Shown here: in pieces, positions 1 to 17,596 of the stretch
How positions within the stretch are numbered: position 1 is the stretch's first letter
Layout: each line of letters begins with the position of its first letter
NCBI GenBank assembly: GCA_963675295.2
Contig: CAXXKJ010000002.1
Coordinates: 3,360,001 to 3,424,000 of the forward strand
Reading direction: 5' to 3'
From: a bacterium
GTDB taxonomy: Bacteria; Electryoneota; Electryoneia; Electryoneales; Electryoneaceae
DNA: 64,000 nucleotides
Notes under the pieces: model-generated
Database searches by the model: none
The model's input: only the letters and a program-made list of their open reading frames with translations
What the model was told of the DNA's origin: nothing
Position numbers and translations under genes: made by a program

Positions 1-2113
1 GCGATCCTTCGAAACCCCAGCGGGAAAGCATTAAGCCTGAAATCAACTGAACGAATTCTGGAAGCTCTTTCAAACGAACAATCATTCCAGCGAGTACCAC
101 CTGTGGAATAAGTACTACCGGTACAAGTGCAAGTGCAGAATTTTCTGAGGATGCAAGGGACGATATCATCAATCCAAGTGCAGTTCCTGTGAAGCAGACG
201 GCAAACAGCATCAGGAAATGAGAAAACCATCCACCGGAGAAGTCAAGAACAGGAAAGACAAAAGCTAGGAGAACTCCTACCTGTAGAGCATCAATGACAG
301 CAAGTACCACTAGTTTGGAGAGCAGGTAATTGCTGGTCAGAAGGAAAACACCCCGCTCTCGACGAAAAATTGCTCGTTCCTGTACAATCTCCCTGGCTGC
401 GTTGGACGCTCCCAACCAGATCGCGGCAATGTTCAGCAGGAAGAGAGGTGTCGCAATGGGATAGGGTTGTTCTGCTGAAGAGTGTGTATCATAGAAAACA
501 GCCGCAATAAGAGCGCCTATGATCGGCGCCTGGAGAAGAAGAATTAATGTTTGCAAACGATCGCGAAGCTTGATCTCTCCGTATCTCGCGATAAGATGTG
601 TCAGCTGTGATAATCCGTGAACTGGTCTTGGCTCAGGATTTGTCGGCGATGTCCAGTTCTTACTGTGTTGACGTTTAGCCACGTAACTGTCGTGGAAACT
701 GGATTGCTGATAAGTTTCTGCCCACTGGGTTGCGTTTCGTGTTTGCAACTTTGAAAAGATATCTTCCGGTGAATCAACTTCGAAGTATTCGGCAGCCTTG
801 CTAGCAGGTCCAAAATACGCCAGATACCCGCTTTCAGTAAGCACAACTAACATGTCCAGCATTTCAAAATTACGCTTGGAGATGTTGTGCGTAGTCAGAA
901 AAACCGTTTTTCCGCGGCGGGTCAATGACCTGAGCATAGTCATGACTTCCTTGTCACTCTGCGGATCGAGACCGCTGCAAGGTTCATCAAGAAAAAGCAC
1001 TGATGGCTGGGTGATCAATTCCTGGGCGCTGTTTACACGTTTTCGTTGACCACCCGAAATCCCTTTCTTTACAGGGCTACCTATCTCCGTGTCACGAATT
1101 GCCTCGAGTCCAAGGTCATGGATGACACGGTTTACTTCACGGCGACGCTCATCCACGTTCAGTTCCGGTAACCGCAAAGCGGCATTGTGGTTCAGGGAGG
1201 ATTCCACTGTTAACTCTGGATGGATGATATCATCCTGGGGCACATAACCGATGAATCCACGGAAACGGGCACTTTCCTTGTGTAGGTTGATTGCATTGAT
1301 GTGTACAGAACCGTAAGCTGGGCGAAGATAACCATTCATTGCCATCATCAAGGTGGTCTTTCCGGATCCGCTCGGTCCGATCAACCCAACAAACTCACCT
1401 GGATTCAACACCACTGAAATGTCATACAGAAGTGTCTTCTCGCCACCTCGCACTGGTACTTTCACGGACAGCTTGCTGACCTCGATGCGAGCTTCTCCTT
1501 CAGCAGCTTCCTCTTCAACAATCTCCTTTTGCCTCGGGAATAATACAACCGGGAGGCCTGCAATTAGGACCCGATTGTTTTCATCAATAATGCGTCGAGA
1601 TATACGTTCGCCATCTACAAACGTACCATTGCTACTTCCTAAGTCTTCCAGCCACCATGCGTTTTCCTTTTCGCCCTTGAGCTGGGCGTGATAGCGAGAT
1701 ACACGTGGGTGGGAAATGACAAAATCGTTGTCTGCGGATCGTCCTATAGTGAGTGTGGTTTTCTTTTCTTCTTTGATGATGAACGTCCAGGCACCAGTAA
1801 TTCCGGTGCGATGGCTAGATTCCAAGTCACTGTCAGCCACTTCTGCATCAAGTGGCTGGTTCACCCAATGTGACAGTAGATCGTTTGACCAATCAAGTTC
1901 AACGGATACTGAGATCCGAACAGGATCCCCGATACGTATCTGTTTTCTATTGATTCGTTCCTGCCCGACATATGTACCGTTGGAAGAGTTCAGATCTTCG
2001 AGCCACAAACCATCGAGAGTTTTCGTGATGCGGGCATGGTGGCTTGAAACGTGTGGATCTGTAAGTACCAGATCGTTATCTGAAGAACGTCCAATTGTGA
2101 ACACCTTCTGCAT
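1..2113 (-). CDS. FHA-FHA-ABC ATPase-permease fusion exporter (Rv1747/ABCG-like), truncated by the window edge
   Basis: Absent from the ORF track because it runs off the left end. Segments translated by hand from ATG 2113: two FHA domains (TIGRSSDND..VSSHHA..DLNSSNGTYV; TIGRSADND..VSRYHA..DLGSSNGTF), Walker A GPSGSGKTT, signature ISGGQRKRV, Walker B LFLDEPCSGLD, permease motif WLGASNAAREIVQERAIFRRE. Confidence 0.88.
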   Translation of the reverse strand, partial: MQKVFTIGRSSDNDLVLTDPHVSSHHARITKTLDGLWLEDLNSSNGTYVGQERINRKQIRIGDPVRISVSVELDWSNDLLSHWVNQPLDAEVADSDLESSHRTGITGAWTFIIKEEKKTTLTIGRSADNDFVISHPRVSRYHAQLKGEKENAWWLEDLGSSNGTFVDGERISRRIIDENNRVLIAGLPVVLFPRQKEIVEEEAAEGEARIEVSKLSVKVPVRGGEKTLLYDISVVLNPGEFVGLIGPSGSGKTTLMMAMNGYLRPAYGSVHINAINLHKESARFRGFIGYVPQDDIIHPELTVESSLNHNAALRLPELNVDERRREVNRVIHDLGLEAIRDTEIGSPVKKGISGGQRKRVNSAQELITQPSVLFLDEPCSGLDPQSDKEVMTMLRSLTRRGKTVFLTTHNISKRNFEMLDMLVVLTESGYLAYFGPASKAAEYFEVDSPEDIFSKLQTRNATQWAETYQQSSFHDSYVAKRQHSKNWTSPTNPEPRPVHGLSQLTHLIARYGEIKLRDRLQTLILLLQAPIIGALIAAVFYDTHSSAEQPYPIATPLFLLNIAAIWLGASNAAREIVQERAIFRRERGVFLLTSNYLLSKLVVLAVIDALQVGVLLAFVFPVLDFSGGWFSHFLMLFAVCFTGTALGLMISSLASSENSALALVPVVLIPQVVLAGMIVRLKELPEFVQLISGLMLSRWGFEGS

Positions 2114-2121
2114 GCTGCTCC

Positions 2122-3006
2122 TCAGTAGCGTACGATTTCACCCCTGTCCTCGACGGGAACAGTAATCTTCAATTCACGGAACACAAGGTGTGCGGTACCC
2201 TCCACCCGCCACTCCCAGCCACGGTTTAGCACTCCGGATATGACGGACGAGCCCAGTTTCAACGAACCCACGCGCAGCTTCAGATCAGTATGGATTGGGC
2301 TTAGTGGGACAAGATGCAGCATTTCATGGGAGTGGATTTCACCAGTCATTGAATCGTTAATGAAAAGATCCAGATCCAGTGAATCGACGGTCAGGTCAGC
2401 GTCAAAAGGATTGATAAATCCAATCCTGACCGTCAATTCCTGTTCCTGCACTCCAAGTTTCCGTAGCCCGACCCGTTCTATTTCAATACCAGCTCGATCC
2501 ACTTGTTCACTGGCCCAGTCTCGTACCATCTGCTTAAACGGCAAGATCACGTCGAGCTCAAACTCTTGTTCAAGCTGGCCTATACCAGTACTCAACTCCA
2601 GCTTTACTGGTGCGGTGACGTTTACTGAATCCGCGCCAAGGACTGCCCGTTCCCAAACAGGCAGGTAGCTGTCGCGCAGAACCAGCGGAAGCGTTAAACG
2701 TATCGTATCGCGAGCTGCGATCTCTGTGTAACCAGTCCAGGTTCCTTTGCCGGCGAGTTCACCATCCAACAGCACGTCGTAATAAGCGCGTTCCAACGTA
2801 GCGCCAACACGATTGGGATTGTATAGAGCAATGCTGACCGCAAGAGAGGTTGAATCTTCGCCTATGGCATCTACTTCTACACGTTCGATTCCAGCGAACT
2901 GTGGTGGTTTGATCACACTGCAGGAGATCATTGTGACTGCCAATAAAACCCCTGCGAGGTTTTGAAACATTACTCCATTCTTAGTTGTCACCTCGCGCTG
3001 CTTCAT
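2122..3006 (-). CDS. LEA_2/WHy-domain lipoprotein (two domains)
   Basis: Lipobox-like MISC; two copies of an 'NPN/NPF..L.(L/V)..(Y/L)D(V/L).(L/I)(D/N)' pattern typical of LEA_2. Confidence 0.7.
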   Translation of the reverse strand: MKQREVTTKNGVMFQNLAGVLLAVTMISCSVIKPPQFAGIERVEVDAIGEDSTSLAVSIALYNPNRVGATLERAYYDVLLDGELAGKGTWTGYTEIAARDTIRLTLPLVLRDSYLPVWERAVLGADSVNVTAPVKLELSTGIGQLEQEFELDVILPFKQMVRDWASEQVDRAGIEIERVGLRKLGVQEQELTVRIGFINPFDADLTVDSLDLDLFINDSMTGEIHSHEMLHLVPLSPIHTDLKLRVGSLKLGSSVISGVLNRGWEWRVEGTAHLVFRELKITVPVEDRGEIVRY

Positions 3007-3809
3007 TTGAGACGCTCCAGCGCTTCTTCGGCGGCAGCGTGCCGCTCACGGAAATAAGGATGGCTGGTCAGGTAGCTATCCATCCTTCGTAGAATGGCAT
3101 CAATCTCATCGGTGGGTTCGTCATAGATGCCTTGTTCTTTTTCTATGTCAATCATCTTGTCCATGAATCTCAGCATGCCTTCTGGATCATATCCGGCCTC
3201 GTGCATCAACCGCATGCCTACTGTATCCGCCTCAATTTCCTGGTCCCTGGAAAATGGGTACGTCACAACAGAGTACCCGATTTGCGTCAGCACACCTGCC
3301 TCGATACCCGCAATACGCTCTGCTGCTGCCGCATGCTGAATTCGATGCACACAATGTTTTTGGTCCACATGCGTCATTTCGTGCGCGATCACAGCTGCAA
3401 GTTCATCCTCGTCAAGTTCTAAATCTAACAACCCGGTGTATATCCAGACCCATCCACCGGCCGAAGCAAAAGCGTTGGTAGTGCTGTCCTCCTCAACCAG
3501 TTGAAATGAATAAGGTCGTAATGAACCTCGTTGCAGTACTGCTTCCAGGCGAGAACCAATTGATTGGATACGTCTCTCCCGCTTGCCATGCAGTAGGGTG
3601 AGGTCACTATTGATCTGTTCCGCTATCCGCTCGCCGAGCTCTTTCTCCTCGTCATCTGTCATATTTGTCGCAGGACGGAGCGTCGAGTCAGCAGCTTGGA
3701 CAATTGTCTTCGCAGTGTTAAACAGATCATCTAAGAGTTGGGCTTTTACTGGCTGCATGATCAACAGAATAAGTGCAGCGAAAAACACTACTAATCTAAA
3801 TATCCGCAC
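3003..3809 (-). CDS. M48 family Zn metalloprotease, exported
   Basis: Signal peptide; NAFASAGG, ELAAVIAHEMTH (HExxH), SRDQEIEAD, AGYDP, TSHP motifs. Confidence 0.9.
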   Translation of the reverse strand: MRIFRLVVFFAALILLIMQPVKAQLLDDLFNTAKTIVQAADSTLRPATNMTDDEEKELGERIAEQINSDLTLLHGKRERRIQSIGSRLEAVLQRGSLRPYSFQLVEEDSTTNAFASAGGWVWIYTGLLDLELDEDELAAVIAHEMTHVDQKHCVHRIQHAAAAERIAGIEAGVLTQIGYSVVTYPFSRDQEIEADTVGMRLMHEAGYDPEGMLRFMDKMIDIEKEQGIYDEPTDEIDAILRRMDSYLTSHPYFRERHAAAEEALERLK

Positions 3810-3826
3810 TTCGACCTCCAGTTAAA

Positions 3827-5155
3827 CTATTGTTGTGAACAAAAACCGATTATTATACTTATAAAAGTAAATAGTAAAATTATTACAAATATTGCCGTTG
3901 CTCTACCATCAATATCCTTTTCCCTATCAACATTAAGATGGTCTCGTGCTGGAGGAAACTTCAAACTTACTGAGTGATTTAGATATTCTTTTGCTAATTC
4001 TCTTTCTTCTTGCGCCTCAAGTAGTCTTCCATACAAATAGGATGCCTGTTGTCCTCGTACTTTCAATAGCTTATGCACACCATTCATTATTTCCTTTTCA
4101 CTCTTATCTAGTAGCTGGCGACAAGGTTCTATAACATATTCTTTACTGAAATATTGTCTGTATTCTCCATTTTCCATTTCATCCACTAGTTCTCTTAGTC
4201 TTAACTGTACGGCATTTTCATATTCCTTTTGTTGACTCTCAAGAAGTGGTTCGGGCAGGTTACTACCTGAAAAACTGCTTTCATGAGCCGCTTCCTGGTA
4301 CGAAATAGTTTCTGATAAATCAGTGTCACTCAACAACTTGAAAAGTACGTCACAGTTTTGAATCCGTTGATCCAAATCGCGGGCTAGTGCATGATGGAGA
4401 ATCTCGACCAAAGATTCCGGGATATACGGATAAAACTCCCGTGGGTCAGGGATTGGATCTTCGAGGCAGGATTTCATGAACACAAACTCAGAGGTCTCGT
4501 CCTCATCGAAAGGCGCCCGTCCAGCGAGCATCACGTAAAGTGTCATACCGAGCGCGTAGATGTCAGCCCGATGATCGACCTGCTTACCGAGAATTTGTTC
4601 GGGTGCCATGTAAACTGGTGTGCCGAGGATGGTTCCTGTGCGCGTCAGCTTTGACTGGCCAGCTACCTTTGCGATCCCGAAATCGGTGACCTTAACAACG
4701 TTGTCCGTGGTGACGAGGACATTGGACGGCTTCAGATCACGATGCACCACGCCCTTGGCGTGTGCGTAATTGACTGCCTGCAGAAGCTGATTAAAAAGTC
4801 GGAGCGCTCGTTCGTGGGGGATCGGACCAACCTCTCGTCCGATCATTTGCTCGAGGTTACGACCCTCGACGTACTCCATAACCAACGCGATACCACCTTC
4901 AAACTGAATGAAATCGTGCACTTGGACGATATTCGGGTGGGTAAGTCTGGCCATGGTTTTGGCTTCACGAGCCATTCGTTCGCGCAACTCTGCAGCTCGC
5001 GCCGGCTGGTCAACCATAACTTTGAGGGCTGTCGGACGATCCAGCACCTCATGCTCAGCCAGATAGACCACACCCATTCCACCCCGTCCCAATTCTCGAA
5101 TTACTTTATAATTCGGAATGATCGGTAGCGGTATCTTGACTGCTTGTTTATCCAT
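3827..5155 (-). CDS. Ser/Thr protein kinase with TPR/Sel1-like helical tail and C-terminal TM helix
   Basis: GRGGMG, ALK, HRDLKPSN, DFG, YMAPE; hydrophobic C-terminus. Confidence 0.92.
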   Translation of the reverse strand: MDKQAVKIPLPIIPNYKVIRELGRGGMGVVYLAEHEVLDRPTALKVMVDQPARAAELRERMAREAKTMARLTHPNIVQVHDFIQFEGGIALVMEYVEGRNLEQMIGREVGPIPHERALRLFNQLLQAVNYAHAKGVVHRDLKPSNVLVTTDNVVKVTDFGIAKVAGQSKLTRTGTILGTPVYMAPEQILGKQVDHRADIYALGMTLYVMLAGRAPFDEDETSEFVFMKSCLEDPIPDPREFYPYIPESLVEILHHALARDLDQRIQNCDVLFKLLSDTDLSETISYQEAAHESSFSGSNLPEPLLESQQKEYENAVQLRLRELVDEMENGEYRQYFSKEYVIEPCRQLLDKSEKEIMNGVHKLLKVRGQQASYLYGRLLEAQEERELAKEYLNHSVSLKFPPARDHLNVDREKDIDGRATAIFVIILLFTFISIIIGFCSQQ

Positions 5156-5174
5156 CTATGTTACTCTGCATGAG

Positions 5175-6758
5175 TCAATCCAGTTTGGATTTACGTATAA
5201 GCCTAAAACCAACGTAAGGAAAATGAAAGCCTGGATAGAATTTTATTCTTGCCGCTGGCGAACATATTGCATGCCCATGCATATATGACCCTCCTCTCAC
5301 AGCCTTCACTCTGGATTTATCAGATCTAGCTTTCTTATCATCACCTTCTATCAATAGTTCATACCTCTTGTACCAATTATCACACCATTCCGCTACATTA
5401 CCTAACATATCATAAAGGCCCCATGGGTTAGGCTTTTTTGTACCAACATTATGTATTTTATTATCGCTGTTTGATTCATACCATGCATATAGATCCAATT
5501 TATCTTCTCTATCACCCCACCAATATCTTTGGTGATCTTTAGAAGCACGACATGCATACTCCCACTGAATTTCAGTTGGCAATGAATAGTAATATTCATC
5601 ATCTTCTAAATTAAGTTTATTTATAAAATCAATAATATCAAACCAAGTCACTTTTACAACAGGATAATCCTCATGATATATCTGTTCCTTATTTTTAGAA
5701 TTAAATGAATACCACATTTTATTAGTAACCAGTGTATTCATAATTTCAAATGCTGATACATAGGTTTCGTGACGAGGTTTTTCTGATTCTAAAGCATATT
5801 GATCTTCATCTGAGGAACCCATCATAAATTTTCCACCAGGTAGTGTAACGAAATTCATGTTCTCTAGTGGGCCCTCTTTCGTCACAAACCTATTATTACT
5901 GCTTACAGATATCAGATTATTCTTTTTTTCGGTTCTATCAATAATATTTACTAGATTATCACAGCTTTCGATCCTTGTTTCTATATTCCTATCTATTGTA
6001 GAGTAAATAATATCGACCATACGTTGAGGTATGTGCGGATAAAACTCTCTTGGATCGCGTATTGGATCCTCAAGACATGATTTCATTATCAGAAACTCGG
6101 ACGTTTCCTCATCATCGAATGGGGGTCTTCCAGCCAGCATCACATACAAAGTCATCCCCAACGCATAAATATCAGCCCGGTGATCGACCTCTTTCGCAAG
6201 AATCTGTTCTGGTGCCATGTAGATAGGCGAGCCAAGAACGGTTCCGGTTCGAGTCAGTTTTGAATCACCTACGGCTTTAGCAATACCGAAATCCGTCACC
6301 TTCACCCGGCCATCCTTGGCAACGAGGATGTTCGCCGGCTTAAGGTCCCTGTGTACTATGCCTTTCTCATGGGCGGCACCCACTGCACCAAGAATCTGCC
6401 TGAAAAGAGGCAACGCACGTTCATGGGGAATTGGGCCAACCTCTCGGCCAATCATCTCCTCCAGGGTACGGCCTTCCACGTATTCCATCACCAAGGCAAC
6501 ATTTTTACCATGATCGACTAGGTCAAAGATCCGAACGATGTTTTCGTGGTCGAGTGTCGCCATGACCCGTGCTTCGCGAAGAAAACGTTCGCGAATGGTC
6601 GCATCCCTCGCATACTGCTCGAGCATGAACTTGATGGCGACCTTACGCTGCAAAACCTCGTGTTCTGCCAGGTACACCACACCCATACCACCCCGACCGA
6701 TTTCCCTGATCAGGCGGTAATTCGGGATCACTGGGTACTGTCCATCAACCTCTATCAC
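5175..6758 (-). CDS. Ser/Thr protein kinase fused to FGE-sulfatase (SUMF1, C-type lectin fold) domain
   Basis: Kinase motifs, then FMMGS, LPTEIQWEYACRA, KPNPWGLYDMLGNVAEW, RGGS, GFRL. Confidence 0.92.
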   Translation of the reverse strand: MIEVDGQYPVIPNYRLIREIGRGGMGVVYLAEHEVLQRKVAIKFMLEQYARDATIRERFLREARVMATLDHENIVRIFDLVDHGKNVALVMEYVEGRTLEEMIGREVGPIPHERALPLFRQILGAVGAAHEKGIVHRDLKPANILVAKDGRVKVTDFGIAKAVGDSKLTRTGTVLGSPIYMAPEQILAKEVDHRADIYALGMTLYVMLAGRPPFDDEETSEFLIMKSCLEDPIRDPREFYPHIPQRMVDIIYSTIDRNIETRIESCDNLVNIIDRTEKKNNLISVSSNNRFVTKEGPLENMNFVTLPGGKFMMGSSDEDQYALESEKPRHETYVSAFEIMNTLVTNKMWYSFNSKNKEQIYHEDYPVVKVTWFDIIDFINKLNLEDDEYYYSLPTEIQWEYACRASKDHQRYWWGDREDKLDLYAWYESNSDNKIHNVGTKKPNPWGLYDMLGNVAEWCDNWYKRYELLIEGDDKKARSDKSRVKAVRGGSYMHGHAICSPAARIKFYPGFHFPYVGFRLIRKSKLD

Positions 6759-6838
6759 TCTTACTCACTTTCAAACGGTTTCAGGAAACTCAAATACCGA
6801 GACAACGTTTGATGCTGAAGGATATAGGGCAAACGTTG

Positions 6839-8179
6839 TCAAACACCACTAATTATTATTGCTAGTATAACAAGAATAACAATAGCTATAGTTATATACA
6901 TAATCTTGCTTTCTTCGGTGAAGACAAATTTTGCTTTTATATACTCTCTTGCATGACTAAACCCATCACTATACGAAATTTTATAATATTTTTGTGCTTG
7001 ATTTGGTAATCCTAACTTTTCCAATATTCTTGCTCTTAACCAAATGAATTCAGCGTCGCCTTCATTAATTTTATTGTCTATCTCTATAACTAAATCTAAA
7101 TATTCAAATGTTAACATAAAGTCAATTTCATTCATAAACTTTTGAGAAAATACGGCGGGATTCGCACTATGTATTTCATTATGTATTATATCTAATATCT
7201 CTCTGTAGACACTAAATCCACTATGATATTTTGTAGATTGCTTTGGAAATTGGTTTTTAAGTGATGTTCCTTTAGTCTTGCTATTTGATTTCTCCACGAT
7301 TAAATTCGAGTTGTCATCATATTCGTTATCTGGCTTATCAAGCATTATAGATATTCTATCACAATCACCATACCTTTTTCCTCTGTCTCTTTCCAACATT
7401 TTCATTGTTATTTTTACTAAACCTTTAGGTATATAGGGATAAAAATCGCGAGGATCAGGAATCGGATCCTCCAAACAGGCCTTCATGAAGGCAAATTCAG
7501 ATAGATCCTCATCATCAAATGGAGGCCTTCCAGCCAGCATCACGTAGAGCGTCATCCCCAGGGAGTAGATATCCGCCCGGTGATCGACTGCCCTACCGAG
7601 GATCTGTTCAGGTGGCATGTAGACCGGCGTTCCCAGCATGGTTCCGGTACGAGTCAGCTTGGACTGCCCAGCCACCTTAGCTATTCCAAAATCCGTCACC
7701 TTGATTTGATTGTCCTTTGTCACCAGGACATTGGATGGTTTCAGATCTCTGTGCACTATACCCCGCTTGTGAGCGTAGGTCACAGCGCCGAGGAGTTGTC
7801 TGAAAAGCGGCAGTGCACGTTCATACGGTATTGGCCCAACCTCTCTCCCGATCATCTGTTCAAGGTCGCGTCCCTCAACATATTCCAGCACGAGCGCGAT
7901 TCCGCCGGGGAACTGAAGATGATCCAGCACTTTTACGATATTCGGATGGTCCAGCTCTGACATCGTGCGAGCTTCACGAGCCATGCGTTCGCGAAGCTCG
8001 GAGTTCTTCGCAAACTGATCCAACATCACTTTGAGGGCGATCTGACGGTTCAGCACTTCGTGCTCCGCCAGATATACCGCCCCCATACCACCTCGGCCGA
8101 TTTCCCTGAGGATCCGATAATTCGGCACAATCGGCAGTGGGATTTGGATATCACCTTTCTGAGTTTGAGATTTGCTCAC
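6839..8179 (-). CDS. Ser/Thr protein kinase with TPR/Sel1-like tail and C-terminal TM helix
   Basis: Kinase motifs (YMPPE in place of APE); tail resembles that of 3827..5155. Confidence 0.92.
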   Translation of the reverse strand: MSKSQTQKGDIQIPLPIVPNYRILREIGRGGMGAVYLAEHEVLNRQIALKVMLDQFAKNSELRERMAREARTMSELDHPNIVKVLDHLQFPGGIALVLEYVEGRDLEQMIGREVGPIPYERALPLFRQLLGAVTYAHKRGIVHRDLKPSNVLVTKDNQIKVTDFGIAKVAGQSKLTRTGTMLGTPVYMPPEQILGRAVDHRADIYSLGMTLYVMLAGRPPFDDEDLSEFAFMKACLEDPIPDPRDFYPYIPKGLVKITMKMLERDRGKRYGDCDRISIMLDKPDNEYDDNSNLIVEKSNSKTKGTSLKNQFPKQSTKYHSGFSVYREILDIIHNEIHSANPAVFSQKFMNEIDFMLTFEYLDLVIEIDNKINEGDAEFIWLRARILEKLGLPNQAQKYYKISYSDGFSHAREYIKAKFVFTEESKIMYITIAIVILVILAIIISGV

Positions 8180-8253
8180 TTCAGATTCCTTTAGTATCCA
8201 TCCATCAAAGATTCAGCTGACCCGTCTTTGCTTACGTGGGTGAAAGCTATGGA

Positions 8254-11013
8254 TCAACGGTTCATTGGCACTCGAACGAGTCGAAATCCCAAGTAGAATT
8301 TCTTTTCTGAAGGATCCTCAAATCGACGACTCGCTGATCGACAAGAACTTGCCATAAATGCCCAATACCCACCGCGTGTAGATCGATATTTGCCACTGAT
8401 GGATCCACGTGGATTCGATACCGGGCTTGATTTGTAGTATTGATCGCTGTAGTAGTCCTGGCACCATTCTTGAACGTTTCCATGCATGTCGTACAACCCC
8501 CATTTGTTGGGAAGTTTGCTCGCTATTGCATGTGTAGTGCCTTGGCTATTGCTGTTATACCATGCATATGCAGGTAACCTGGAATAATCTAGGTCATCGC
8601 CCCAGCTGAAGCGGCTTCCATCTTCTCCAGCCCGGCAAGCATACTCCCATTCCGCCTCTGTCGGTAGGCGATAGGTATAGCTTGGATCATATTTGTTGAG
8701 TTCTTGAATGAATTCCTGAACATCATACCATGATACTTTTTCTACAGGCAGTCTATTTCCTTTGAAATGAGATGGATTATTCCTCATTAGAGTAGCCCAC
8801 GTTTCTTGTGTGACTTCTGTGGACATAATTTCAAATGATGAAACATGCACTTGATGTCGAGGATATTCATCGTATTTTGAATCCTTTTCATTGGCTAATG
8901 CTCCCATCGTGAAGTTTCCTTCGGGAATCTGGATAAAGGTTATTCCTAGCTTGGGCATACGTATTTTTGATGGAACACGAATTTCTTCTGGTAAATTTCG
9001 TTCTGTCTTATCCTCGTGTTTCGACGTGAGGTCCGCAGTTTTGGATTCGATCGAAACACGAGCAACCCGGAATCCCCATAGTACTGCGCTAAAGCTGGGA
9101 TAACTTGCGTATCGAACACTAGGTGAACATGCCTCTCTCGTACTTGTCCAATTCCCACCCCTTACAACTCTATATAGACCATTCAGAGGACCACTTGGAT
9201 CAATCTCATTACCTTTGGAATAATAATCTACGTCATACCAGTCATGGACCCACTCCCCAACATTTCCATGCATATCATATAGACCCCACGGATTAGAGGG
9301 TTTTATTGAAACAGCGTGTGTACCTATTGAATTACTATTATCGTAATACCATTCATAGTAGCTTAAATCATTTCCTGCTGCGTCGTTTCCCCACCAGAAT
9401 ATGGATTCTGCATTACCAGTTCTGCACGCATATTCCCATTCAGCCTCAGTAGGAAGACGATAATGCATCTGCGGATCACGAATATTGAGCCAGTCGATAA
9501 ATGCTATTACATCATTCCAGCTTACACAGACGACTGGGTATTGATCGGATTGAAGAAATCCTGGATGATTCCAATTCACTTCTGAATCGATTGCCCATTC
9601 TGTGCCATTCCATGCATAGGAACCAGAATTCTTCTCAGCGTCAGTATCATAACCAGTTGCATCAACAAACTCACCGAATTGGGATACTGTTACTTCTGTC
9701 GACATTAGCTCAAAGGCTGAGACTGTTACCTTATGACGCGGATACGAATCTCTTTTTAGCCCAGTCTCAATGGGCAATGCACCCATTATGTAGCTACCAG
9801 CTGGGATCTGAACGAAAGTCATACCAGCAATTGGTCCTCGCGAACTGGAATCAGTTTCTAGTTCAATTGATTTATCATTGTCTTCGTTTATTATTTCTCT
9901 AGAATTAATATCACTGCTTAGATTGCCATTATAGTTGTGTATAACCATAATTATAAAAAACACTCCAATTATTGCAATAATGAAAAGAAATGTCTTGACT
10001 CTTTTTTCCGATTCTTGCTGAGATTCGATTTCCTTTTTCCTTTGATTCTCTTCTAGCTGTCGAACTTTTTCTTGCCTGCGTTTTTCCTCTTCCTCATACT
10101 GTTTTTTCGAATGTTCCATCTGTTTCTCGTACTCTTCCTGTTCCCTCCTCTCTTCTTCAGCAGCCTCCATTTCCACTTGGTTGGTAAGACGATCTATTTC
10201 CTTAAGCTCATCTACACTTTTTAGAGATACTTTAAATGAAGCACAGTCTAGAAGACGTTTTTTCAAATCTCGCTCAAGGGCAGAGAATACTACTTTCACA
10301 ACTGGTTCAGGGATATATGGGTAATATTCTCGTGGGTCCGGGATTGTATCCTCAAGACATGCCTTCATAAATGCGAATTCAGAAGTTTCTTCTTCGTTAA
10401 ATGGTGTCCAGCCTGCCAGCATGACGTATAGCGTCATTCCCAGGGAATAGATGTCTGTCTGGTGATTAATCGGTTTCCCAAGAATCTGCTCAGGCGCCAT
10501 GTAGAGCGGTGTGCCTAACATTGTACCAGTTTTAGTCAGTTTCGACTGGCCTGCGGCTTTGGCGATACCAAAATCCGTAACCTTGACGATATTATCTTTC
10601 GATACCAGGATGTTTGATGGTTTCAGATCTCGATGAATCACTCCCTTGTCATGGGCAAAACCCACAGCAGCCAAGATTTGTTCGAATAGTGGCAGGGCTC
10701 TTTCATAGGGGATCGGTCCCATCTCGCGCCCGATCATCTGTTCCAGAGTCCGGCCTTCTACATATTCCATTACGAGAGCCGAACCACCTTCAAACTGGAT
10801 GTAATCGTGGATCTTTACGATGTTCGGATGGTCAAGCTGGGCAAGGGTTTGAGCCTCACGCTCCATTCGATAGCGTAAGTCAGTATTTCGAGTGTAGAGA
10901 TCGAGCATCACCTTTAGAGCATACCGACGTTTCAGCACCTCATGCTCTGCAAGGTAAACGATTCCCATTCCACCGCGACCTAACTCTTCTAAGATCTTGT
11001 AGCCAGGTACCAA
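8254..11013 (-). CDS. Ser/Thr protein kinase - coiled coil - TM - two FGE-sulfatase domains
   Basis: Kinase motifs; E/K/Q-rich coil; TM FLFIIAIIGVFFIIMVI; two LPTEAEWEYACR / WGLYDMHGNV.EW / GFR sets; GGAGGG upstream of the TTG start. Confidence 0.92.
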   Translation of the reverse strand: MVPGYKILEELGRGGMGIVYLAEHEVLKRRYALKVMLDLYTRNTDLRYRMEREAQTLAQLDHPNIVKIHDYIQFEGGSALVMEYVEGRTLEQMIGREMGPIPYERALPLFEQILAAVGFAHDKGVIHRDLKPSNILVSKDNIVKVTDFGIAKAAGQSKLTKTGTMLGTPLYMAPEQILGKPINHQTDIYSLGMTLYVMLAGWTPFNEEETSEFAFMKACLEDTIPDPREYYPYIPEPVVKVVFSALERDLKKRLLDCASFKVSLKSVDELKEIDRLTNQVEMEAAEEERREQEEYEKQMEHSKKQYEEEEKRRQEKVRQLEENQRKKEIESQQESEKRVKTFLFIIAIIGVFFIIMVIHNYNGNLSSDINSREIINEDNDKSIELETDSSSRGPIAGMTFVQIPAGSYIMGALPIETGLKRDSYPRHKVTVSAFELMSTEVTVSQFGEFVDATGYDTDAEKNSGSYAWNGTEWAIDSEVNWNHPGFLQSDQYPVVCVSWNDVIAFIDWLNIRDPQMHYRLPTEAEWEYACRTGNAESIFWWGNDAAGNDLSYYEWYYDNSNSIGTHAVSIKPSNPWGLYDMHGNVGEWVHDWYDVDYYSKGNEIDPSGPLNGLYRVVRGGNWTSTREACSPSVRYASYPSFSAVLWGFRVARVSIESKTADLTSKHEDKTERNLPEEIRVPSKIRMPKLGITFIQIPEGNFTMGALANEKDSKYDEYPRHQVHVSSFEIMSTEVTQETWATLMRNNPSHFKGNRLPVEKVSWYDVQEFIQELNKYDPSYTYRLPTEAEWEYACRAGEDGSRFSWGDDLDYSRLPAYAWYNSNSQGTTHAIASKLPNKWGLYDMHGNVQEWCQDYYSDQYYKSSPVSNPRGSISGKYRSTRGGYWAFMASSCRSASRRFEDPSEKKFYLGFRLVRVPMNR

Positions 11014-11077
11014 GTATCCAGACCCTCCAATTGATTGGACAAATCTATACTCAAGTTATTTCAAAGTTGCACAAGCT

Positions 11078-12187
11078 CTACCATAGAGATAAGAAAAAAA
11101 CGGGGACAGCGAACATTGCAATAATCGATACTACTATTGCTATTGCTAAAACAAGAGAAGTAAAGCTTTCACCAGAAGATGATTTCTCAAGCACGACATC
11201 GTATTCCTCACTTAAACCATGTTTTACATCTGACTTATTTTCAATCGATCCATAAGACGTGGTAATATATTCATTATCTTTATTTTCATTATTTATATCA
11301 TTTTTATTTAATATACTAACATTATACTCTTCATTCATTATAATATTATCATTCTTTTGCGTCTGGTATATTGCATAAATTATATCTATACATTTATTAT
11401 ATCTTAGCTTTATCGATCTTTCAAGTGCTTTATTGATTGCATGAATAAGATGATCCGGGATGTATGGATAAAACGTCCTTGGATCGGGAATCTCATCTTC
11501 CATGCAGGATTTCAATAGTACAAACTCCGATGTTTCATCTTCATCAAACGGCGCGCGTCCAGCCAGCATCACGTACAACGTCATTCCCAAGGCATAAATG
11601 TCCGCTCTGTGGTCCACAGCTTTACCGAGGATCTGTTCCGGCGCCATGTAAATGGGTGTTCCGAGGACAGTCCCTGTGCGCGTAAGCTTGGATGCTCCCG
11701 CCGCCTTGGCAATTCCGAAGTCCGTCACCTTGATCCGATTGTCTTTCGTGACCAGCACATTCGCTGGCTTCAGGTCACGGTGAATGATGCCTTGCTCATG
11801 CGCATACCCAACCGCATCCAACAATTGACGAAACAGGGGCAATGCCCGTTCGTGCGGAATTGGACCAACCTCGCGCCCAATCATTTGCTCGAGGCTGCGA
11901 CCATCAACGTACTCCATCACGAACGCGACATCATCCTCACGCTCAATCAGGTCGTGCACCTTGACTATGTTGGGATGATCCATTGTTGCCATCATGCGGG
12001 CTTCACGCAGAAATCTCTCGCGTACCGCTTCATCGCGGGCATGCTGTTCAAGAATAACTTTGATGGCTACTTGCCGATGTAGTCCCTTGTGATTTCCAAG
12101 GTAGACCACACCCATCCCGCCACGACCAATTTCTCGTTCGACCGTGTAGTTGGCAAACTCAGGTAGTCTTGTCGATGCAGGACTCAT
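11078..12187 (-). CDS. Ser/Thr protein kinase with C-terminal TM anchor
   Basis: Kinase motifs; N-rich linker; hydrophobic C-terminus. Confidence 0.92.
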   Translation of the reverse strand: MSPASTRLPEFANYTVEREIGRGGMGVVYLGNHKGLHRQVAIKVILEQHARDEAVRERFLREARMMATMDHPNIVKVHDLIEREDDVAFVMEYVDGRSLEQMIGREVGPIPHERALPLFRQLLDAVGYAHEQGIIHRDLKPANVLVTKDNRIKVTDFGIAKAAGASKLTRTGTVLGTPIYMAPEQILGKAVDHRADIYALGMTLYVMLAGRAPFDEDETSEFVLLKSCMEDEIPDPRTFYPYIPDHLIHAINKALERSIKLRYNKCIDIIYAIYQTQKNDNIIMNEEYNVSILNKNDINNENKDNEYITTSYGSIENKSDVKHGLSEEYDVVLEKSSSGESFTSLVLAIAIVVSIIAMFAVPVFFLSLW

Positions 12188-13323
12188 TCTTCAGACACGC
12201 TCTCTCTTCCGGGCTCAGATTCGGAGATTAAAGATGAACGACCAGAGTCTACTATGGTAACGCTCACTGCAATTAATGGTGGATGGAACATGGTATCTTT
12301 AGGAAATGCTTGGTCAATACTCTGTCGCGGATCGATTTCTTCAACAGTCAGGTCATGGGTGGGTTGCGAAAAAAAGGATCTGAGGAATTTCCCGGGAACT
12401 GTGTTAAGTAAAAGTAATGCTGCGACTACTGCCGCCAGGAGAATGATCACGGTACCGCCGTATAAAGCCACCCTGGGCAAGTGTTTGACTGGGGGTACAT
12501 CTATTTGTCGCGTTTGACGGTCTGCTCCATCCGATCGGAGCAAAGGTTTTCGTGGCTTCGGACCAATATGGCAGTCAACAATTTGCACGGTGGCGTTGTC
12601 GTCTCCACTTCGCTCATTCGCAAGTTTTACCAATCTTTCAGCCAGCACCTGAGGTGTTTGATCGATAGATTGCTGTTCCATATCGATTGCAGGAATTGGA
12701 CCAGAGATCCCATCCGTACACAGGATGAAGCGGTCGCCTTTGCAAACATCTACAGTTTCAATCTCGGGTTCAATTTCCTCGCGTACACCCAACGCCCGGG
12801 TAATCACATTTTTCTGTGGATGGTCTTCTGCTTCCTTCTCTGTGATCAATCCCCGGCGTTGCATCTCGCTAACCATGGAATGATCCTGGGTCAGCTGTTC
12901 GATATGATCCAATCGAATTCGATATAGCCGGCTGTCGCCAATGTGTACACGCCAGGCGGTGGGCTTTTTTGTTGTACTTACGAGGAGCAGGACACACGTT
13001 GTGCCCATTCCTTCCAGTTCGGAGTTCTGATCAATTTCCTGTCGGATAGCGCGGTTCGCACTTGCAAGTGCCCGCTTCAGTACTTTGGGGGCGTTCCTAT
13101 CGACAGATTCCGTGACAACTTTGGCAATTGTCTCCACGGCCAGTCGGCTGGCACGTTTACCACCAACATGCCCACCCATGCCATCACATACGATGAAAAG
13201 TGAACCCAATTCCGTTTCAAAAAAGCCATAGTAGTCTTCATTTTCGCTACGAACGGTCCCCACATCGGTAAAATTCCCGAACTCAATCGGCGACCGTTTA
13301 CCGAACGTTAGCAGCGGGATCAT
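12184..13323 (-). CDS. PP2C-family (PrpC/Stp1-like) Ser/Thr phosphatase with TM helix
   Basis: RSENED, VCDGMGGH, GMGTT, HIGDSRLY, NVITRALG, LCTDG, DDNAT. Confidence 0.93.
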   Translation of the reverse strand: MIPLLTFGKRSPIEFGNFTDVGTVRSENEDYYGFFETELGSLFIVCDGMGGHVGGKRASRLAVETIAKVVTESVDRNAPKVLKRALASANRAIRQEIDQNSELEGMGTTCVLLLVSTTKKPTAWRVHIGDSRLYRIRLDHIEQLTQDHSMVSEMQRRGLITEKEAEDHPQKNVITRALGVREEIEPEIETVDVCKGDRFILCTDGISGPIPAIDMEQQSIDQTPQVLAERLVKLANERSGDDNATVQIVDCHIGPKPRKPLLRSDGADRQTRQIDVPPVKHLPRVALYGGTVIILLAAVVAALLLLNTVPGKFLRSFFSQPTHDLTVEEIDPRQSIDQAFPKDTMFHPPLIAVSVTIVDSGRSSLISESEPGRESVSEE

Positions 13324-14924
13324 TCTTGCACCCCTTGGAACTGAAGTTCACAGCGTCCCATCTGAATGCGGTCACCATTGTTCAGCAGGACGGTATGAAT
13401 TTGTTCTCCGTTCACTCTTGTGCCGTTTGTAGAATCGTTGTCTGTCAGTTGGAACTGCCCACCGACAAATCGCAGTGTAGCGTGATGTCCAGAAACCGTC
13501 GGTTCCTCAAGCACAATGCGATTGTCGTCCGCAGCCCCGATCGTCACTTCCGCAGCGGTCACATCAAACTCAGATCCCGCCTGCGAGCCGCTGCTGATGA
13601 GAAAGCTTCCACTTTTATATACCTGTAAGGCCGGTTGGCCAATGATCGTTTTCCGTGACATCGATTGCGCGGGAGCCTGACCTGCAACCGAAGTGTGAGA
13701 TGGGATTCCCGTGTCGCGGCTTGATCCTGCTTCAACTTGATCGGACTCGGGAACAGGTTCAGCTTTCAACTTGGCAGCTTCCGCTTCCTGCTGTTTTCGT
13801 TTTTCTTCCAGCCGATGCTCCTCTTCCTGGCGTCGGCGCTCTTCTTCAAGCAATCTTTGTTCTTCTTCCCGGCGTTTCGCCCGATTCCGGGAGCTGACTA
13901 GAGCAATGACTACAACGACAATAACCACAACAGCACCGCCAGCGGCGACAGGAATGAAGGGGAATTCAGAATCGCTCCTTCCTCCGTGTCCGTCATCCGC
14001 TGTCACACGCGTTGAAACTGCCATGGATAGTACTGTCTGACCTGCAAAATTGCCCCGACTGGCAGCAATTGTGTAGCTGTGGGACCGGCCATCTGCCAAC
14101 TCGGACGGCGGATTGAAGGATAGCAAATATTGGCTCTTCAGGTAATCCAGCGAAAGTACAAACTGTTCGCTAAGATCTTCGGATTCACGCGCGCGGTGAT
14201 ATTGTCCATTTGTACGGTCACTCATCGCCTCCAGATTCCGCAAGAATCGTTCATCGATGTTTGTAAATCCTACCGTAAAAATCGGAACATCATTTTCGTT
14301 CGCTTTTTCAATGCAATTATCCAGGGAGTAAGCATTCGCCATACTTTCGTTCTTTCCATCTGAAAGCACCAGAACTAGCCGTCGATCAGGAATTCCTGTG
14401 CTTTCATCAAGGAAGGTGAGACTTCGGTAAACTCCATAAAACAACTCTGTGGTCGCACCTCTGGCCTGGATGGTCCCCGTTCGCTCTTTCAAATACGAAC
14501 GGTTCATGGAAAAGTCGGATACGATTTCCACCTCATCGCCAAAGGTGATAATGGCTACCCGGTCCTGGGGACGTAGCTGATCGATGTATTCATTCACTGC
14601 TTCTTTAGCATCTGCCATTGGATCTCCGGACATGGACAGAGATGCATCAAGGCAAAGGACAACCGCTACACCCTGGTCGGACTCATAGAAGGACTGCACG
14701 CGCGGTGAAATCGATGAATACCCTTCCGGGATCACATTGAAATGTGTCGAATCCAATCCCAGCACTCCCTCTCGGTTCGCATCGAGGACCGTTACCGCAG
14801 CAATCACAGCCGAGGTATGGGTTGAATCGATCTCGTCCAGTCTGACAGTCCAAGGCTCGACCGCGTTGGCAGTAGTAGCTAGGAACAGGATCATCATGAT
14901 CATCGCAAGATGATTGCTTTTCAT
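13320..14924 (-). CDS. Signal peptide - VWA - TM - coiled coil - FHA protein
   Basis: MIDAS DASLS and LSDG; TM VVVIVVVVIALV; FHA VSGHHA..DNDSTNGTRVNG. Confidence 0.88.
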   Translation of the reverse strand: MKSNHLAMIMMILFLATTANAVEPWTVRLDEIDSTHTSAVIAAVTVLDANREGVLGLDSTHFNVIPEGYSSISPRVQSFYESDQGVAVVLCLDASLSMSGDPMADAKEAVNEYIDQLRPQDRVAIITFGDEVEIVSDFSMNRSYLKERTGTIQARGATTELFYGVYRSLTFLDESTGIPDRRLVLVLSDGKNESMANAYSLDNCIEKANENDVPIFTVGFTNIDERFLRNLEAMSDRTNGQYHRARESEDLSEQFVLSLDYLKSQYLLSFNPPSELADGRSHSYTIAASRGNFAGQTVLSMAVSTRVTADDGHGGRSDSEFPFIPVAAGGAVVVIVVVVIALVSSRNRAKRREEEQRLLEEERRRQEEEHRLEEKRKQQEAEAAKLKAEPVPESDQVEAGSSRDTGIPSHTSVAGQAPAQSMSRKTIIGQPALQVYKSGSFLISSGSQAGSEFDVTAAEVTIGAADDNRIVLEEPTVSGHHATLRFVGGQFQLTDNDSTNGTRVNGEQIHTVLLNNGDRIQMGRCELQFQGVQE

Positions 14925-15550
14925 GACGCCTCCACTGTGTCGATAAGACGTAATTTCAAGTGTGTCCGGCCGATCAAGATGTTGTCGCCGTCTTGCAACA
15001 CACGTGGGACATCTCCTACGTCTTCACCATTTACAAACGTACCGTTTGTCGAGAAGTTGTCACGCAGTTTTAAGACACCTCCTCGGTACAACAATTCAGC
15101 ATGAAAGCCCGAGACCATACCGTCTGGCAGCTGGATTTCCACGTCATTACCACTGCCGATACGAGTTTTCCCAACATGTAGCCGGTAGTCTTGGCCATTC
15201 GGATTCCAGTCAAAGCTCACCAACCAGCCGATCAACTTTCCTTGAACGCCCGCCTTCGCAGCACCGCGTTGTTCCTCGGAAGCACCTGCAGGTTCTGGTT
15301 CGAGAATAACCGTCTTTCTGGCACCACCACTACCACCAGGTCTTGCTGTCTTCTCGACCGGCGCATCGAGCACGGTCTTTCGCTGCCCCGTTGGTTTATC
15401 GGCTTGTGGCCCCTTTGACTTGTCGGGTGTGTGCTTCACCGGTTTATCAAGAACCGTTTTGGCGGACGGATCGGTTTTAGGACAAAACGGGCATTCATCA
15501 AGATCTGCACGGTATCGATGTCCGTTCGGGCAAACTTTTGTTGCTTCCAT
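14921..15550 (-). CDS. Zn-ribbon + FHA domain protein
   Basis: CPNGH..CPFC; GWLV motif; VSGFHA..DNFSTNGTFVNG. Confidence 0.85.
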   Translation of the reverse strand: MEATKVCPNGHRYRADLDECPFCPKTDPSAKTVLDKPVKHTPDKSKGPQADKPTGQRKTVLDAPVEKTARPGGSGGARKTVILEPEPAGASEEQRGAAKAGVQGKLIGWLVSFDWNPNGQDYRLHVGKTRIGSGNDVEIQLPDGMVSGFHAELLYRGGVLKLRDNFSTNGTFVNGEDVGDVPRVLQDGDNILIGRTHLKLRLIDTVEAS

Positions 15551-15568
15551 CAGCCAGCCACCCTTGCT

Positions 15569-16966
15569 TTAAGTTTTAAACTCTTTACCGTAGGTGTTAC
15601 GTACACGCTTTGATTTCTTGAAATATAACCACCAAATAGTAAAATATATGATTGCATGAAAAATTGATTTTATAGTCTCAAACTGATATTCATGAAAAAT
15701 ATTACTTGATCCTGATGTTATTATTAAAGTAAGTAAATCACTACTGACCCATAATATTAAATTTCCCTTTAAAAAGGTACGTGCAGTAGATCTGCCAGTT
15801 TGTTTTCCCCTCCAAACAATAATTCCTGTAAAGAATCCCCAAATATTCAATATTAACGTGGATAATATATCTATTGACATAACGATATCTAATAGAGGGT
15901 CGATGTCAAACAAATCACCGTAGATAGAAATTGACCATAACGTTGCAATTGGAGTTAAAATTGTTAATGAAACACAAAAGAGTAGCAACCAACCACCCAC
16001 ACCGCGAGGATTGTTATCTTCTTCAATTGATGAATTTTCGGTAGTATCGTTAGTTAAGGAATCCACTTCAGGTGGTCTATTCATTTGACTCGAATCGTGA
16101 TGATCTGATTCATATCGAGTAGATGGACGCACGAAATCAACCTGACCGTTTAGAAAACTCTTGAATTGACTAGAAGAGGCAAACCGTAGTCCCGGATCCT
16201 TTTCCGTTGCCAATCGAATCGCATCGACTACTTGGTCGGGAATGTGAGGGTAATACTCTCTTGGATCAGGTAGATCGTGCTTCACGATCCAATCCATGAT
16301 CTTGTATTCGCTGGAAGTTGTCGCGTCGAACGGCACGCGACCGGTAACCATCTCGTATAGGGTTATCCCGAGCGAATAAATGTCGCTCCGTTCTGTCGCC
16401 TCAATTCCTTTCACCTGCTCCGGCGACATGTACCAAAGTGTTCCAAGCTTGGTCCCGGTCCGGGTCAGCCCTTGCTGCCCGATGATTTTTGCGATGCCCA
16501 GGTCGGTAACCTTTACAACGTCACTAGGTGTGACAATGGCATTGGAAGGCTTTATGTCTCGGTGAATTATACCGCGGGAATGTAGGTAATCGAAGGCGTC
16601 AAGAAGCTGGAAAAAGATCGGCAGGGCACGTTCGGATACAATCGGTCCAACTTCGCGACCGATAATTTGATCGAGGCTGCGCCCCTCGATGAATTCCATC
16701 ACCAGCGCAAGACGATCTTCCGTTTCGATGTAATCAAGGAGTGTGACGATGTTGGGATGACTGAGTGAGGCTTGTAGTCGGGCTTCGCGGGAAAAGCGTT
16801 CCCGCAATTGAGGATCTCGACTGTGATGTTCGTGGAGGATTTTTACTGCGACGGTCCGATCAAGCCGAGTGTCAGTCGCTCTCCAGACAACTCCCATCCC
16901 GCCTTCGCCGATGATCTCATGTAACTCATAGTGCAGCAAGCGCACCGCAACCTCCCTGGCATCCAC
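15569..16966 (-). CDS. Ser/Thr protein kinase with multi-TM DUF2569-like C-terminal domain
   Basis: GEGGMG, HRDIKPSN, DLG, YMSPE; tail GVGGWLLLF...WWLYFKKSKRVRNTY. Confidence 0.88.
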   Translation of the reverse strand: MDAREVAVRLLHYELHEIIGEGGMGVVWRATDTRLDRTVAVKILHEHHSRDPQLRERFSREARLQASLSHPNIVTLLDYIETEDRLALVMEFIEGRSLDQIIGREVGPIVSERALPIFFQLLDAFDYLHSRGIIHRDIKPSNAIVTPSDVVKVTDLGIAKIIGQQGLTRTGTKLGTLWYMSPEQVKGIEATERSDIYSLGITLYEMVTGRVPFDATTSSEYKIMDWIVKHDLPDPREYYPHIPDQVVDAIRLATEKDPGLRFASSSQFKSFLNGQVDFVRPSTRYESDHHDSSQMNRPPEVDSLTNDTTENSSIEEDNNPRGVGGWLLLFCVSLTILTPIATLWSISIYGDLFDIDPLLDIVMSIDILSTLILNIWGFFTGIIVWRGKQTGRSTARTFLKGNLILWVSSDLLTLIITSGSSNIFHEYQFETIKSIFHAIIYFTIWWLYFKKSKRVRNTYGKEFKT

Positions 16967-17435: not shown

Positions 17436-17542
17436 GGGCAACAAACAGCAACAAATCCCAAACAACCAAAGCGATTCACTTTGCAGAAACCATTGAATCC
17501 ATTACTGTTATGAATTGTGGCTTGTTGTGAATTTGGCCTTTA

Positions 17543-17589
17543 TGGGACTTTTAAGCCCAAGGCCGTGGGTTCGAGTCCCACCATCCTCA
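17543..17589 (+). pseudogene. 3' half of tRNA-Lys(UUU), probable att site
   Basis: tggga-CTTTTAA-gccca anticodon arm, gtggg-TTCGAGT-cccac T arm, acceptor 3' strand catcctc-a; no matching 5' strand or D arm upstream. Confidence 0.78.
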
Positions 17590-17596
17590 CAAGGAT

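Follow-up and report, generated by a model that had tools for sequence, protein, structure and literature searches.

A six-kinase array with a silent-site GC step between conserved heads and variable tails on a tRNA-integrated island of an Electryoneota bacterium

A 64,000-nucleotide (nt) stretch of the genome of an Electryoneaceae bacterium of the phylum Electryoneota (assembly GCA_963675295.2, contig CAXXKJ010000002.1, positions 3,360,001 to 3,424,000; hereafter the window) contains an array of Ser/Thr kinase genes in which the base composition of silent sites falls between a conserved catalytic head and a variable tail. The span flagged in a preliminary description of this sequence, 3827..12187, consists of five co-directional minus-strand kinase genes, designated K1–K5. 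A sixth paralogue, K6, lies outside the flagged span, with PP2C, vWA-FHA and FHA genes between K6 and K5. The account favoured here, which is considered probable by a modest measure, is that of a six-kinase operon on an integrative island, with tails re-paired, replaced or extended at the head/tail boundary and a step in guanine-plus-cytosine (GC) content that marks the modules. Comparison with related proteins partly supports such rearrangement as a historical process at the level of the family.

The six genes are listed below with the GC content at third codon positions (GC3) of heads and tails, which were split for these values at the end of the motif DPR.(F/Y)YP(Y/H)IP.

K1, Ser/Thr kinase, 3827..5155, minus strand: clade A head at 4418-5155 and AT-rich tail at 3827-4417, in which a linker and a helical region lead to a C-terminal hydrophobic anchor; Pkinase E 3.8e-57; GC3 0.57 in the head and 0.27 in the tail
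K2, kinase, 5175..6758, minus strand: clade B head at 6027-6758 and tail at 5175-6026, with one FGE-sulfatase domain and without a hydrophobic segment; GC3 0.54 and 0.26
K3, kinase, 6839..8179, minus strand: clade A head at 7427-8179 and AT-rich helical tail with a C-terminal anchor at 6839-7426; GC3 0.57 and 0.23
K4, kinase, 8254..11013, minus strand: clade A head at 10309-11013 and tail at 8254-10308, with a coiled coil, one membrane helix and two FGE-sulfatase domains; GC3 0.49 and 0.35
K5, kinase, 11078..12187, minus strand: clade B head at 11456-12187 and low-complexity AT-rich tail with a C-terminal anchor at 11078-11455; GC3 0.56 and 0.21
K6, kinase, 15569..16966, minus strand: head at 16238-16966 and DUF2569 multi-pass membrane tail at 15569-16237; GC3 0.58 and 0.28

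The spacers of the array measure 17-80 nt, and no small open reading frames (ORFs) lie between the kinase genes. A genome-wide search recovered K1–K6 as the only members of the family, plus one distant kinase at 37% identity.

Kinase heads and the silent-site GC step

All six genes match Pkinase (PF00069) with E-values of 2.5e-53 to 3.1e-59, far exceeding the cut-off of 31.7 bits. Residues G23/G25/G26/G28, K45, E64, D140, N145, D158, E186 and R264 (K1 numbering) are invariant in the six heads, and these columns are read from the alignment as the Gly-rich loop, the VAIK Lys, the helix C Glu, the HRD Asp, the DFG Asp, the APE Glu and the subdomain XI Arg. Since this catalytic set is invariant, K1–K6 are all predicted to be active Hanks-type Ser/Thr kinases. 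In a head tree of 43 rows (supports given as paired values), K1–K5 and four metagenomic proteins form one clade (99/97). The two head subtypes of the preliminary description are recovered in this tree, and the motifs quoted for them are present in the translations: clade A unites the heads of K1, K3 and K4 (100/97), with K3 joined to P0028 (99/94) and K1 to the pair of K4 and P0002 (100/99), while clade B unites those of K2 and K5 (96/86), with K2 joined to P0005 (100/96) and K5 to P0012 (100/99). The signal that separates A from B is concentrated in the first 95 residues of the head.

The genes had been described as becoming more AT-rich just past the motif, and both measures used here agree, K6 behaving likewise. 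In 300-nt windows, GC is 0.52-0.56 on heads and 0.28-0.39 on tails, in agreement with the coordinates first listed. At fourfold-degenerate sites the heads range from 0.43 to 0.61, while all six tails are strikingly uniform at 0.22-0.28, K4 (0.28) included. The AT-rich block terminates at the stop codon, and GC is back up within ~50-100 nt. A head-to-tail GC3 drop of more than 0.2 is found in 151 of the 2426 genome ORFs of at least 250 amino acids; five of the kinases rank 2, 3, 4, 6 and 7 among these, K4 falls outside the top 25, and rank 1 is held by a Type ISP restriction enzyme.

The notion of a common junction is approximate for the GC step. The best single GC3 change-points by maximum likelihood fall after codons 277, 225, 239, 202, 244 and 230 of K1–K6, and the motifs end at codons 246, 244, 251, 235, 244 and 243, respectively. 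The step is thus near the motif, as first described, at positions that vary from -33 to +31 codons relative to its end rather than at a single fixed codon. The support interval of the K1 change-point leaves the motif outside, and the K4 step is weak (log-likelihood difference, dlnL, 10.5).

Several simple causes can be set aside. The preliminary description had allowed for a drop fully explained by amino-acid composition; because the step is present at synonymous and fourfold-degenerate sites, this cause is ruled out by the GC3 and fourfold-site values. Conservation-linked codon bias is likewise ruled out within the heads, where GC3 does not follow residue conservation (0.52 at codons invariant in all six and 0.57 at variable ones). 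Nor does the FGE fold require AT-rich codons, as four chromosomal FGE paralogues have a GC3 of 0.74-0.84. The genome as a whole has a GC content of 57.7%, and its intergenic DNA between GC-rich ORFs (n=832), taken as the native non-coding reference, averages 0.534, with 0.44 as its 5th percentile. With an overall GC of 0.28-0.37, five tails lie under this native non-coding range; the K4 tail, at 0.42, lies just under the 5th percentile.

Tails and their pairing with heads in relatives

The four leftmost tails had been described as alternating between TPR-like and FGE types. The FGE-sulfatase domains are confirmed, with one in K2 (E 7.6e-45) and two in K4 (E 4.2e-105), while the TPR_8 matches of K1 (16.4 bits) and K3 (12.7 bits) stay below the cut-off of 25.7. 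AlphaFold models of the K1 and K3 tails are all-helical with low confidence (mean predicted local distance difference test score, pLDDT, 59.6 and 51.4), and a TPR fold was not accepted for either on the basis of sub-threshold Pfam matches and low-confidence models. The two tails show no significant similarity to each other (BLASTP E = 21). The C-terminal hydrophobic helices of K1, K3 and K5 would anchor these kinases in the membrane.

Relatives of the tails are few and distant. A database search detected no homologue of the K1 tail; the K2 tail has a best identity of at most 42% among 5.8 billion proteins, with no close donor, and its FGE domain is at most 43% identical to every FGE domain compared. 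Among 1.84 billion representatives, P0240 alone is homologous to the K3 tail (42% identity, E 4e-38). The FGE domains of K4 are nearest to that of a kinase of G009, one of two genomes (G009 and G016) that share the operon described below, at 48-55% identity. DUF2569, fused to a kinase in K6, is a separate gene in G016, and the K6 tail has only a weak local match to that stand-alone gene. The occurrence of FGE tails on both an A and a B head had been read as a sign of exchange. This does not hold: the K2 and K4 FGE tails are separate lineages, their union in a single clade being rejected by the approximately unbiased (AU) test (p-AU 0.043), so that FGE on both head types in this array reflects no swap between them.

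Evidence for re-pairing comes instead from the relatives, where three of five orthologue pairs differ in tail content. K2 and P0005 are collinear over their full length (56% identity; heads 74%) with the FGE tail retained, and K5 and P0012 are collinear into the tail. K4 and P0002 are collinear up to the membrane helix, where P0002 ends and K4 continues with two FGE domains. The alignment of K3 with P0028 stops ~35 residues past the motif, giving way to a helical anchor tail in K3 and an FGE tail in P0028, and K6 and its G009 orthologue (G009a_1) have heads that are 66% identical and unrelated tails (DUF2569 vs DUF975). The separate head and tail trees that had been proposed as a check are incongruent for P0028, whereas the tails of the K2/P0005 and K5/P0012 pairs remain collinear with their head orthologues.

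Two of the metagenomic proteins look like chimeras that switch at the motif. P0028 appears to combine a K3-type head with a K2-type FGE tail: up to the motif K3 is the best match or ties for it, with window identities of 60-97%, and beyond the motif the best match is P0005/K2. Its FGE domain clusters with those of K2 and P0005 (91/90), a clade with the K4 FGE domains being rejected (p-AU 0.005). P0240 appears to combine a K5-type head end, which shares 59 of 64 residues with K5 and 47 of 64 with K3, with a K3-type tail, and the AU test rejects a position of this head end beside K3 and P0028 (p-AU 0.012). In both, the tail corresponds to a gene that lies farther downstream, in the transcription order K5, K4, K3, K2, K1, than the gene to which the head corresponds. 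This direction (K3 to K2, K5 to K3) is the one expected from deletion between tandem heads, which two cases can do no more than suggest. Among the matches listed in contig scans for the relatives' DNA, made with generic kinase patterns, all loci have at most 57% identity.

Exchange through the head, as first proposed, thus finds partial support as family-level history (P0028, P0240 and K6/G009) and none as a process ongoing in this genome, where nothing points to current shuffling. Head pairs share 43-82% DNA identity, no 90-nt window of any pair exceeds 82%, and exact matches between heads reach 18 nt at most. The heads are therefore too diverged for recombination between them to be active any longer. 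Sliding DNA identity, exact-match lengths and three-segment trees give no support to recent gene conversion or mosaic heads. Searches of the genome with the six tails (blastn and tblastn) returned the tails themselves and distant FGE paralogues, with no second or orphan copy, and positions 1-20000 of the window contain neither a template/variable repeat pair nor inverted repeats; silent cassettes and template repeats are ruled out by these searches. The sequence runs that contain the locus are three from the source sample and one more, with short low-depth contigs and zero differences. The joints listed in the run search are cross-matches in FGE regions at 80% likeness.

The sole RVT_1 reverse transcriptase of the genome is encoded by a 319-amino-acid ORF in an AT-rich patch (L219:5764-6723; G000:C2:3514764-3515723), ~138 kb past the last kinase gene. 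The repeats in the surrounding 12 kb are all tandem arrays (105-nt x2 and 15-nt x6 at L219:8202-8534), with no template/variable pair among them.

Accounts of the re-pairing and of the AT-rich tails

In the favoured account, each kinase would consist of a conserved catalytic head and a tail that behaves as a separate evolutionary unit, the tail being either a membrane anchor, a single or double FGE/C-type-lectin-like domain, or the DUF2569 membrane domain. Head and tail would be joined at the motif or within ~30 residues after it. The probable route is recombination between paralogous or orthologous heads, deletions between tandem heads included. Recombination with similar alleles would maintain the local composition of such scaffolds, while variable modules, which evolve fast and have few or no partners, would remain at or drift to ~25% silent-site GC.

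A number of points weigh against this account. P0028, P0240 and P0012 are partial proteins on short metagenome contigs and may be assembly chimeras; the 18-nt limit on exact matches opposes such an artefact only if the relatives' arrays are as diverged as the one in the window. The head type of P0240 is read from 64 residues, and its grouping with K5 is weak (44/87). The groups compared in the AU tests were chosen post hoc, with the data already seen. Trees built from three segments of the head are free of supported conflict, so that mosaicism of the heads in this genome lacks support. A polarised amino-acid test for AT-ward drift in the K2 tail was not significant (18 vs 10, p = 0.19). Lastly, two of the five orthologue pairs have collinear tails that are equally AT-rich, so re-pairing is insufficient to explain the composition. 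Indeed, re-pairing within the family cannot by itself create a GC step.

Relaxed codon selection is an unlikely cause of the AT-rich tails, since core intergenic DNA stands at a GC of 0.53 and relaxation alone cannot bring a segment to 0.3. An alternative, which merits serious attention even though it is judged unlikely, dispenses with exchange altogether: the tails would have diverged in place after tandem duplication under weak constraint, with AT-biased mutation unopposed in segments that evolve fast and seldom recombine. The collinear K2/P0005 and K5/P0012 pairs, in which tails are much more diverged than heads (for K2, at most 43% identity for the FGE domain against 74% for the head), are what such divergence would produce. 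The common layout of the K1 and K3 tails (linker, helices, anchor), the lack of a homologue for the K1 tail and of a close donor for that of K2, and the uniform fourfold-site GC of all six tails fit equally well. According to PMC11879095, GC and recombination rate are positively correlated in 119 of 146 species, and its authors prefer selection over biased conversion as the explanation. Against divergence in place stand the incongruence of P0240 and P0028, the unrelated tails of K6 and G009a_1, the core intergenic GC and the independence of head GC3 from conservation.

Recent import of tails from AT-rich donors into the genome or the island, by recombination anchored in the head, would account for the contrast with a host at 57.7% GC, and under common relations of codon-position composition to genome GC, the tail composition at the three codon positions would resemble that of a genome of ~30-38% GC. 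The island is mobile, with its attachment (att) repeats intact, and the G016 operon carries inserted AT-rich accessory genes (GC3 0.20-0.25). Import is nevertheless improbable as the source of the composition: searches gave no similar donor sequences, the head orthologues of K2 and K5 share the tails of these kinases, and six independent imports at one junction would be required. The tails of relatives are also AT-shifted, as judged by their amino-acid make-up, which marks the state as old. Active programmed diversification, whether by cassette switching, by phase variation or through a diversity-generating retroelement that targets the FGE tails, is the least credible alternative and is given almost no weight. 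FGE/C-type-lectin domains are classic retroelement targets, according to PMC7159879, and the genome does encode one reverse transcriptase; this enzyme, however, lies ~138 kb away among tandem arrays only, and neither the repeats nor the second tail copies that such systems call for were found in positions 1-20000 and genome-wide, respectively.

Whatever its cause, the step bears on what maintains bacterial GC content, as silent sites separated by no more than ~100 codons in one gene differ greatly in a genome whose core non-coding DNA stands at 53%.

Operon, island and relation to known systems

The operon runs in the order kinase, FHA, vWA-FHA, PP2C, kinase slot, M48, LEA_2 and FHA-ABC exporter. 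In addition to the kinases it comprises the following genes, to which the right-hand boundary of the island is appended:

FHA protein with an N-terminal Cys-rich segment, 14921..15550, minus strand: FHA E 1.4e-16
vWA-FHA protein, 13320..14924, minus strand: VWA E 1.6e-16, FHA E 2.5e-18
PP2C phosphatase, 12184..13323, minus strand: PP2C_2 E 1.3e-17
M48 peptidase, 3003..3809, minus strand: conserved operon member by domain match and operon comparison
LEA_2 protein, 2122..3006, minus strand: conserved operon member by domain match and operon comparison
ABC exporter with two FHA domains, 2..2113, minus strand: FHA x2, ABC_tran and ABC2_membrane; the gene extends past the window start
Island right end, 17548..17590, plus strand: 43-nt perfect repeat of the tRNA-Lys 3′ end (100% match to L217:6678-6720)

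The co-directional vWA, Ser/Thr kinase, FHA and PP2C genes keep their order in G009 and G016, and the slot after PP2C is occupied by a single kinase in G009 and by two in G016. The GC step of these two genomes is small (head GC3 0.42-0.50 vs tail 0.33-0.39 in the three kinases measured). Kinases and vWA-FHA co-occur in 3 of 79 genomes of the phylum, and both operon and kinases are absent from the three same-genus genomes searched (86-96% complete). In the G016 operon, three AT-rich genes (L038:3640-6624; GC3 0.20-0.25) encoding zinc-ribbon-DUF2569, OmpA-like and MotA/ExbB-like proteins stand among conserved genes with a GC3 of 0.37-0.45.

The kinase operon forms the right-hand third of an island of ~50.9 kb (G000:C2:3326647-3377590, that is, L217:6647 to window position 17590) in a tRNA-Lys gene (L217:6647-6720), next to a tyrosine integrase gene (L217:6834-7928; Phage_integrase E 3e-31). 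The last 43 nt of the tRNA gene recur perfectly at the right end. GC per kb is 0.39-0.59, mostly 0.40-0.53, and reaches ~0.59 past the right end. With tRNA, integrase, direct repeat and composition shift all present, this is a tRNA-integrated genomic island. Its other cargo includes DUF3987, a Type I restriction-modification system (HsdR/M/S with a T5orf172 gene), DUF4238, McrBC, a MerR and vWA pair, a DrmD homologue (E 7.5e-250) and DpdF-like helicase genes. Another exact repeat, of 19 nt, is found a short way inside each end (L217:6772-6790 and window 17417-17435). At L218:1146-5952, two ORFs match positions 5-207 and 273-388 of the DpdF profile and flank a helix-turn-helix gene (2808-3800; GC 0.61), and it looks as if a DpdF-like gene was split here by an inserted element of host-like composition. 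Just outside the island, window 17711-20767 holds a 1018-amino-acid ORF of native GC3 (0.75) without a Pfam match, followed by a PorV-like gene at 21250-22284.

Domain content and neighbourhood suggest a signalling model in which kinases that differ in localisation or ligand would phosphorylate shared targets; the FHA protein, the vWA-FHA protein and the FHA-ABC exporter would read this phosphorylation, and PP2C would reset it. It is possible, although rather doubtful, that the array constitutes a threat-sensing repertoire of receptor kinases, with the head serving as signalling output and recombination anchor and with sensor or localisation tails turning over in a mobile defence pool. Were this so, the array would be the kinase counterpart of restriction-enzyme specificity-domain shuffling and of polymorphic toxin tips, and swappable modules in general could be searched for by a sharp step in silent-site GC. 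Any defence role is, like the signalling model, proposed from domains and neighbourhood. The kinases match PADLOC models (PD-T4-6, E ~1e-90; mad6, ~1e-77) almost wholly over the generic kinase domain, and these matches do not demonstrate defence. The kinase-based anti-phage systems of PADLOC (PD-T4-6, Stk2, mad6) are single kinases or have another gene set, and the kinases of the array share with them these profile matches and sit in a defence island.

Among systems with related partners is the pair of the kinase PknF and the FHA-regulated ABC exporter Rv1747 of Mycobacterium tuberculosis. The array likewise sets an ABC-2 exporter with two N-terminal FHA domains beside Ser/Thr kinase genes, although it comes from an unrelated lineage and has many kinases and extra partners. 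The four-domain gene set is shared with vWA/kinase/FHA/PP2C operons such as DRA0331-0334 of D. radiodurans, the kinase-PP2C-vWA theme (Kaur et al. 2020) and the Esr threat-sensing pathway. In 10.64898/2026.01.23.701218, PMC7159879 and PMC13622651, the kinase/phosphatase pair of such modules is described as acting on FHA proteins, with sensors being most divergent, and these sources link related modules to threat sensing or conflict. In contrast to these operons, no MoxR ATPase was seen in the array, which has six kinases instead of one, adds M48, LEA_2 and the FHA-ABC exporter, and lies in a tRNA-integrated defence island of a different phylum. With a multi-kinase vWA/FHA/PP2C operon located on an integrative defence island, a role in threat sensing can be put to the test. 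Among the results listed for literature on Rhs composition, recombination and GC, kinase-based defence and vWA/FHA/PP2C modules, no kinase array with an intragenic GC step was seen; none of these searches targeted such arrays, and the indication of novelty is therefore weak.

The likeness to polymorphic toxin arrays noted in the preliminary description extends to a conserved N-terminal core, a short junction motif and a variable AT-rich C-terminal extension that contrasts in GC with the core, as set out for Rhs proteins in PMC7259588. The array is without toxin tips, immunity genes and orphan tips, and its members are complete genes with an intact kinase domain.

The closest parallels in composition are found in other genes of the same genome. 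In the HsdS gene of the island (L217:16686-18452), GC3 along the gene runs 0.53, 0.28-0.45, 0.82 and 0.70, 0.25-0.40, 0.62, the two low blocks being taken to be the two recognition domains. A Type ISP enzyme (L119; G000:C2:1480500-1483832) has a C-terminal block with a GC3 of 0.12-0.38, preceded by 0.40-0.68 and followed by 0.60, and this block overlaps the specificity-domain match. The reverse arrangement is seen in four genes for type IX secretion cargo, whose N-terminal passenger is AT-rich (GC3 0.26-0.38) and whose C-terminal part is GC-rich (0.64-0.82):

Type IX cargo L127, G000:C2:1833434-1835800: C-terminal part includes Por_Secre_tail
Type IX cargo L128, G000:C2:1467806-1470466: C-terminal part includes Por_Secre_tail
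Type IX cargo L133, G000:C2:794231-795037: C-terminal part includes Por_Secre_tail
Type IX cargo L135, G000:C2:175302-177722: C-terminal part includes Por_Secre_tail

Target-recognition domains of restriction enzymes are classically swapped through recombination in conserved segments. HsdS and Type ISP resemble the kinases in that the variable modules (GC3 ~0.12-0.45 in this genome) contrast with conserved parts (0.40-0.82). They differ in that the kinase tails are no DNA-recognition domains, the conserved anchor of the kinases, the head, is one-sided, and exchange among the kinases is inferred from two chimeric relatives rather than directly observed. Bacterial Ser/Thr kinases carry many different C-terminal domains, and direct evidence for the origin of these combinations is, to our knowledge, scarce. 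Here a tandem array, two apparent natural chimeras and a silent-site composition step converge on one junction, and if the GC3 step proves a reliable mark of swappable specificity modules, it would offer an easy screen, from sequence alone, for modular sensors in genomes of high GC. Taken against these known systems, the array is a variant of modular bacterial kinases and of AT-rich swappable specificity modules.

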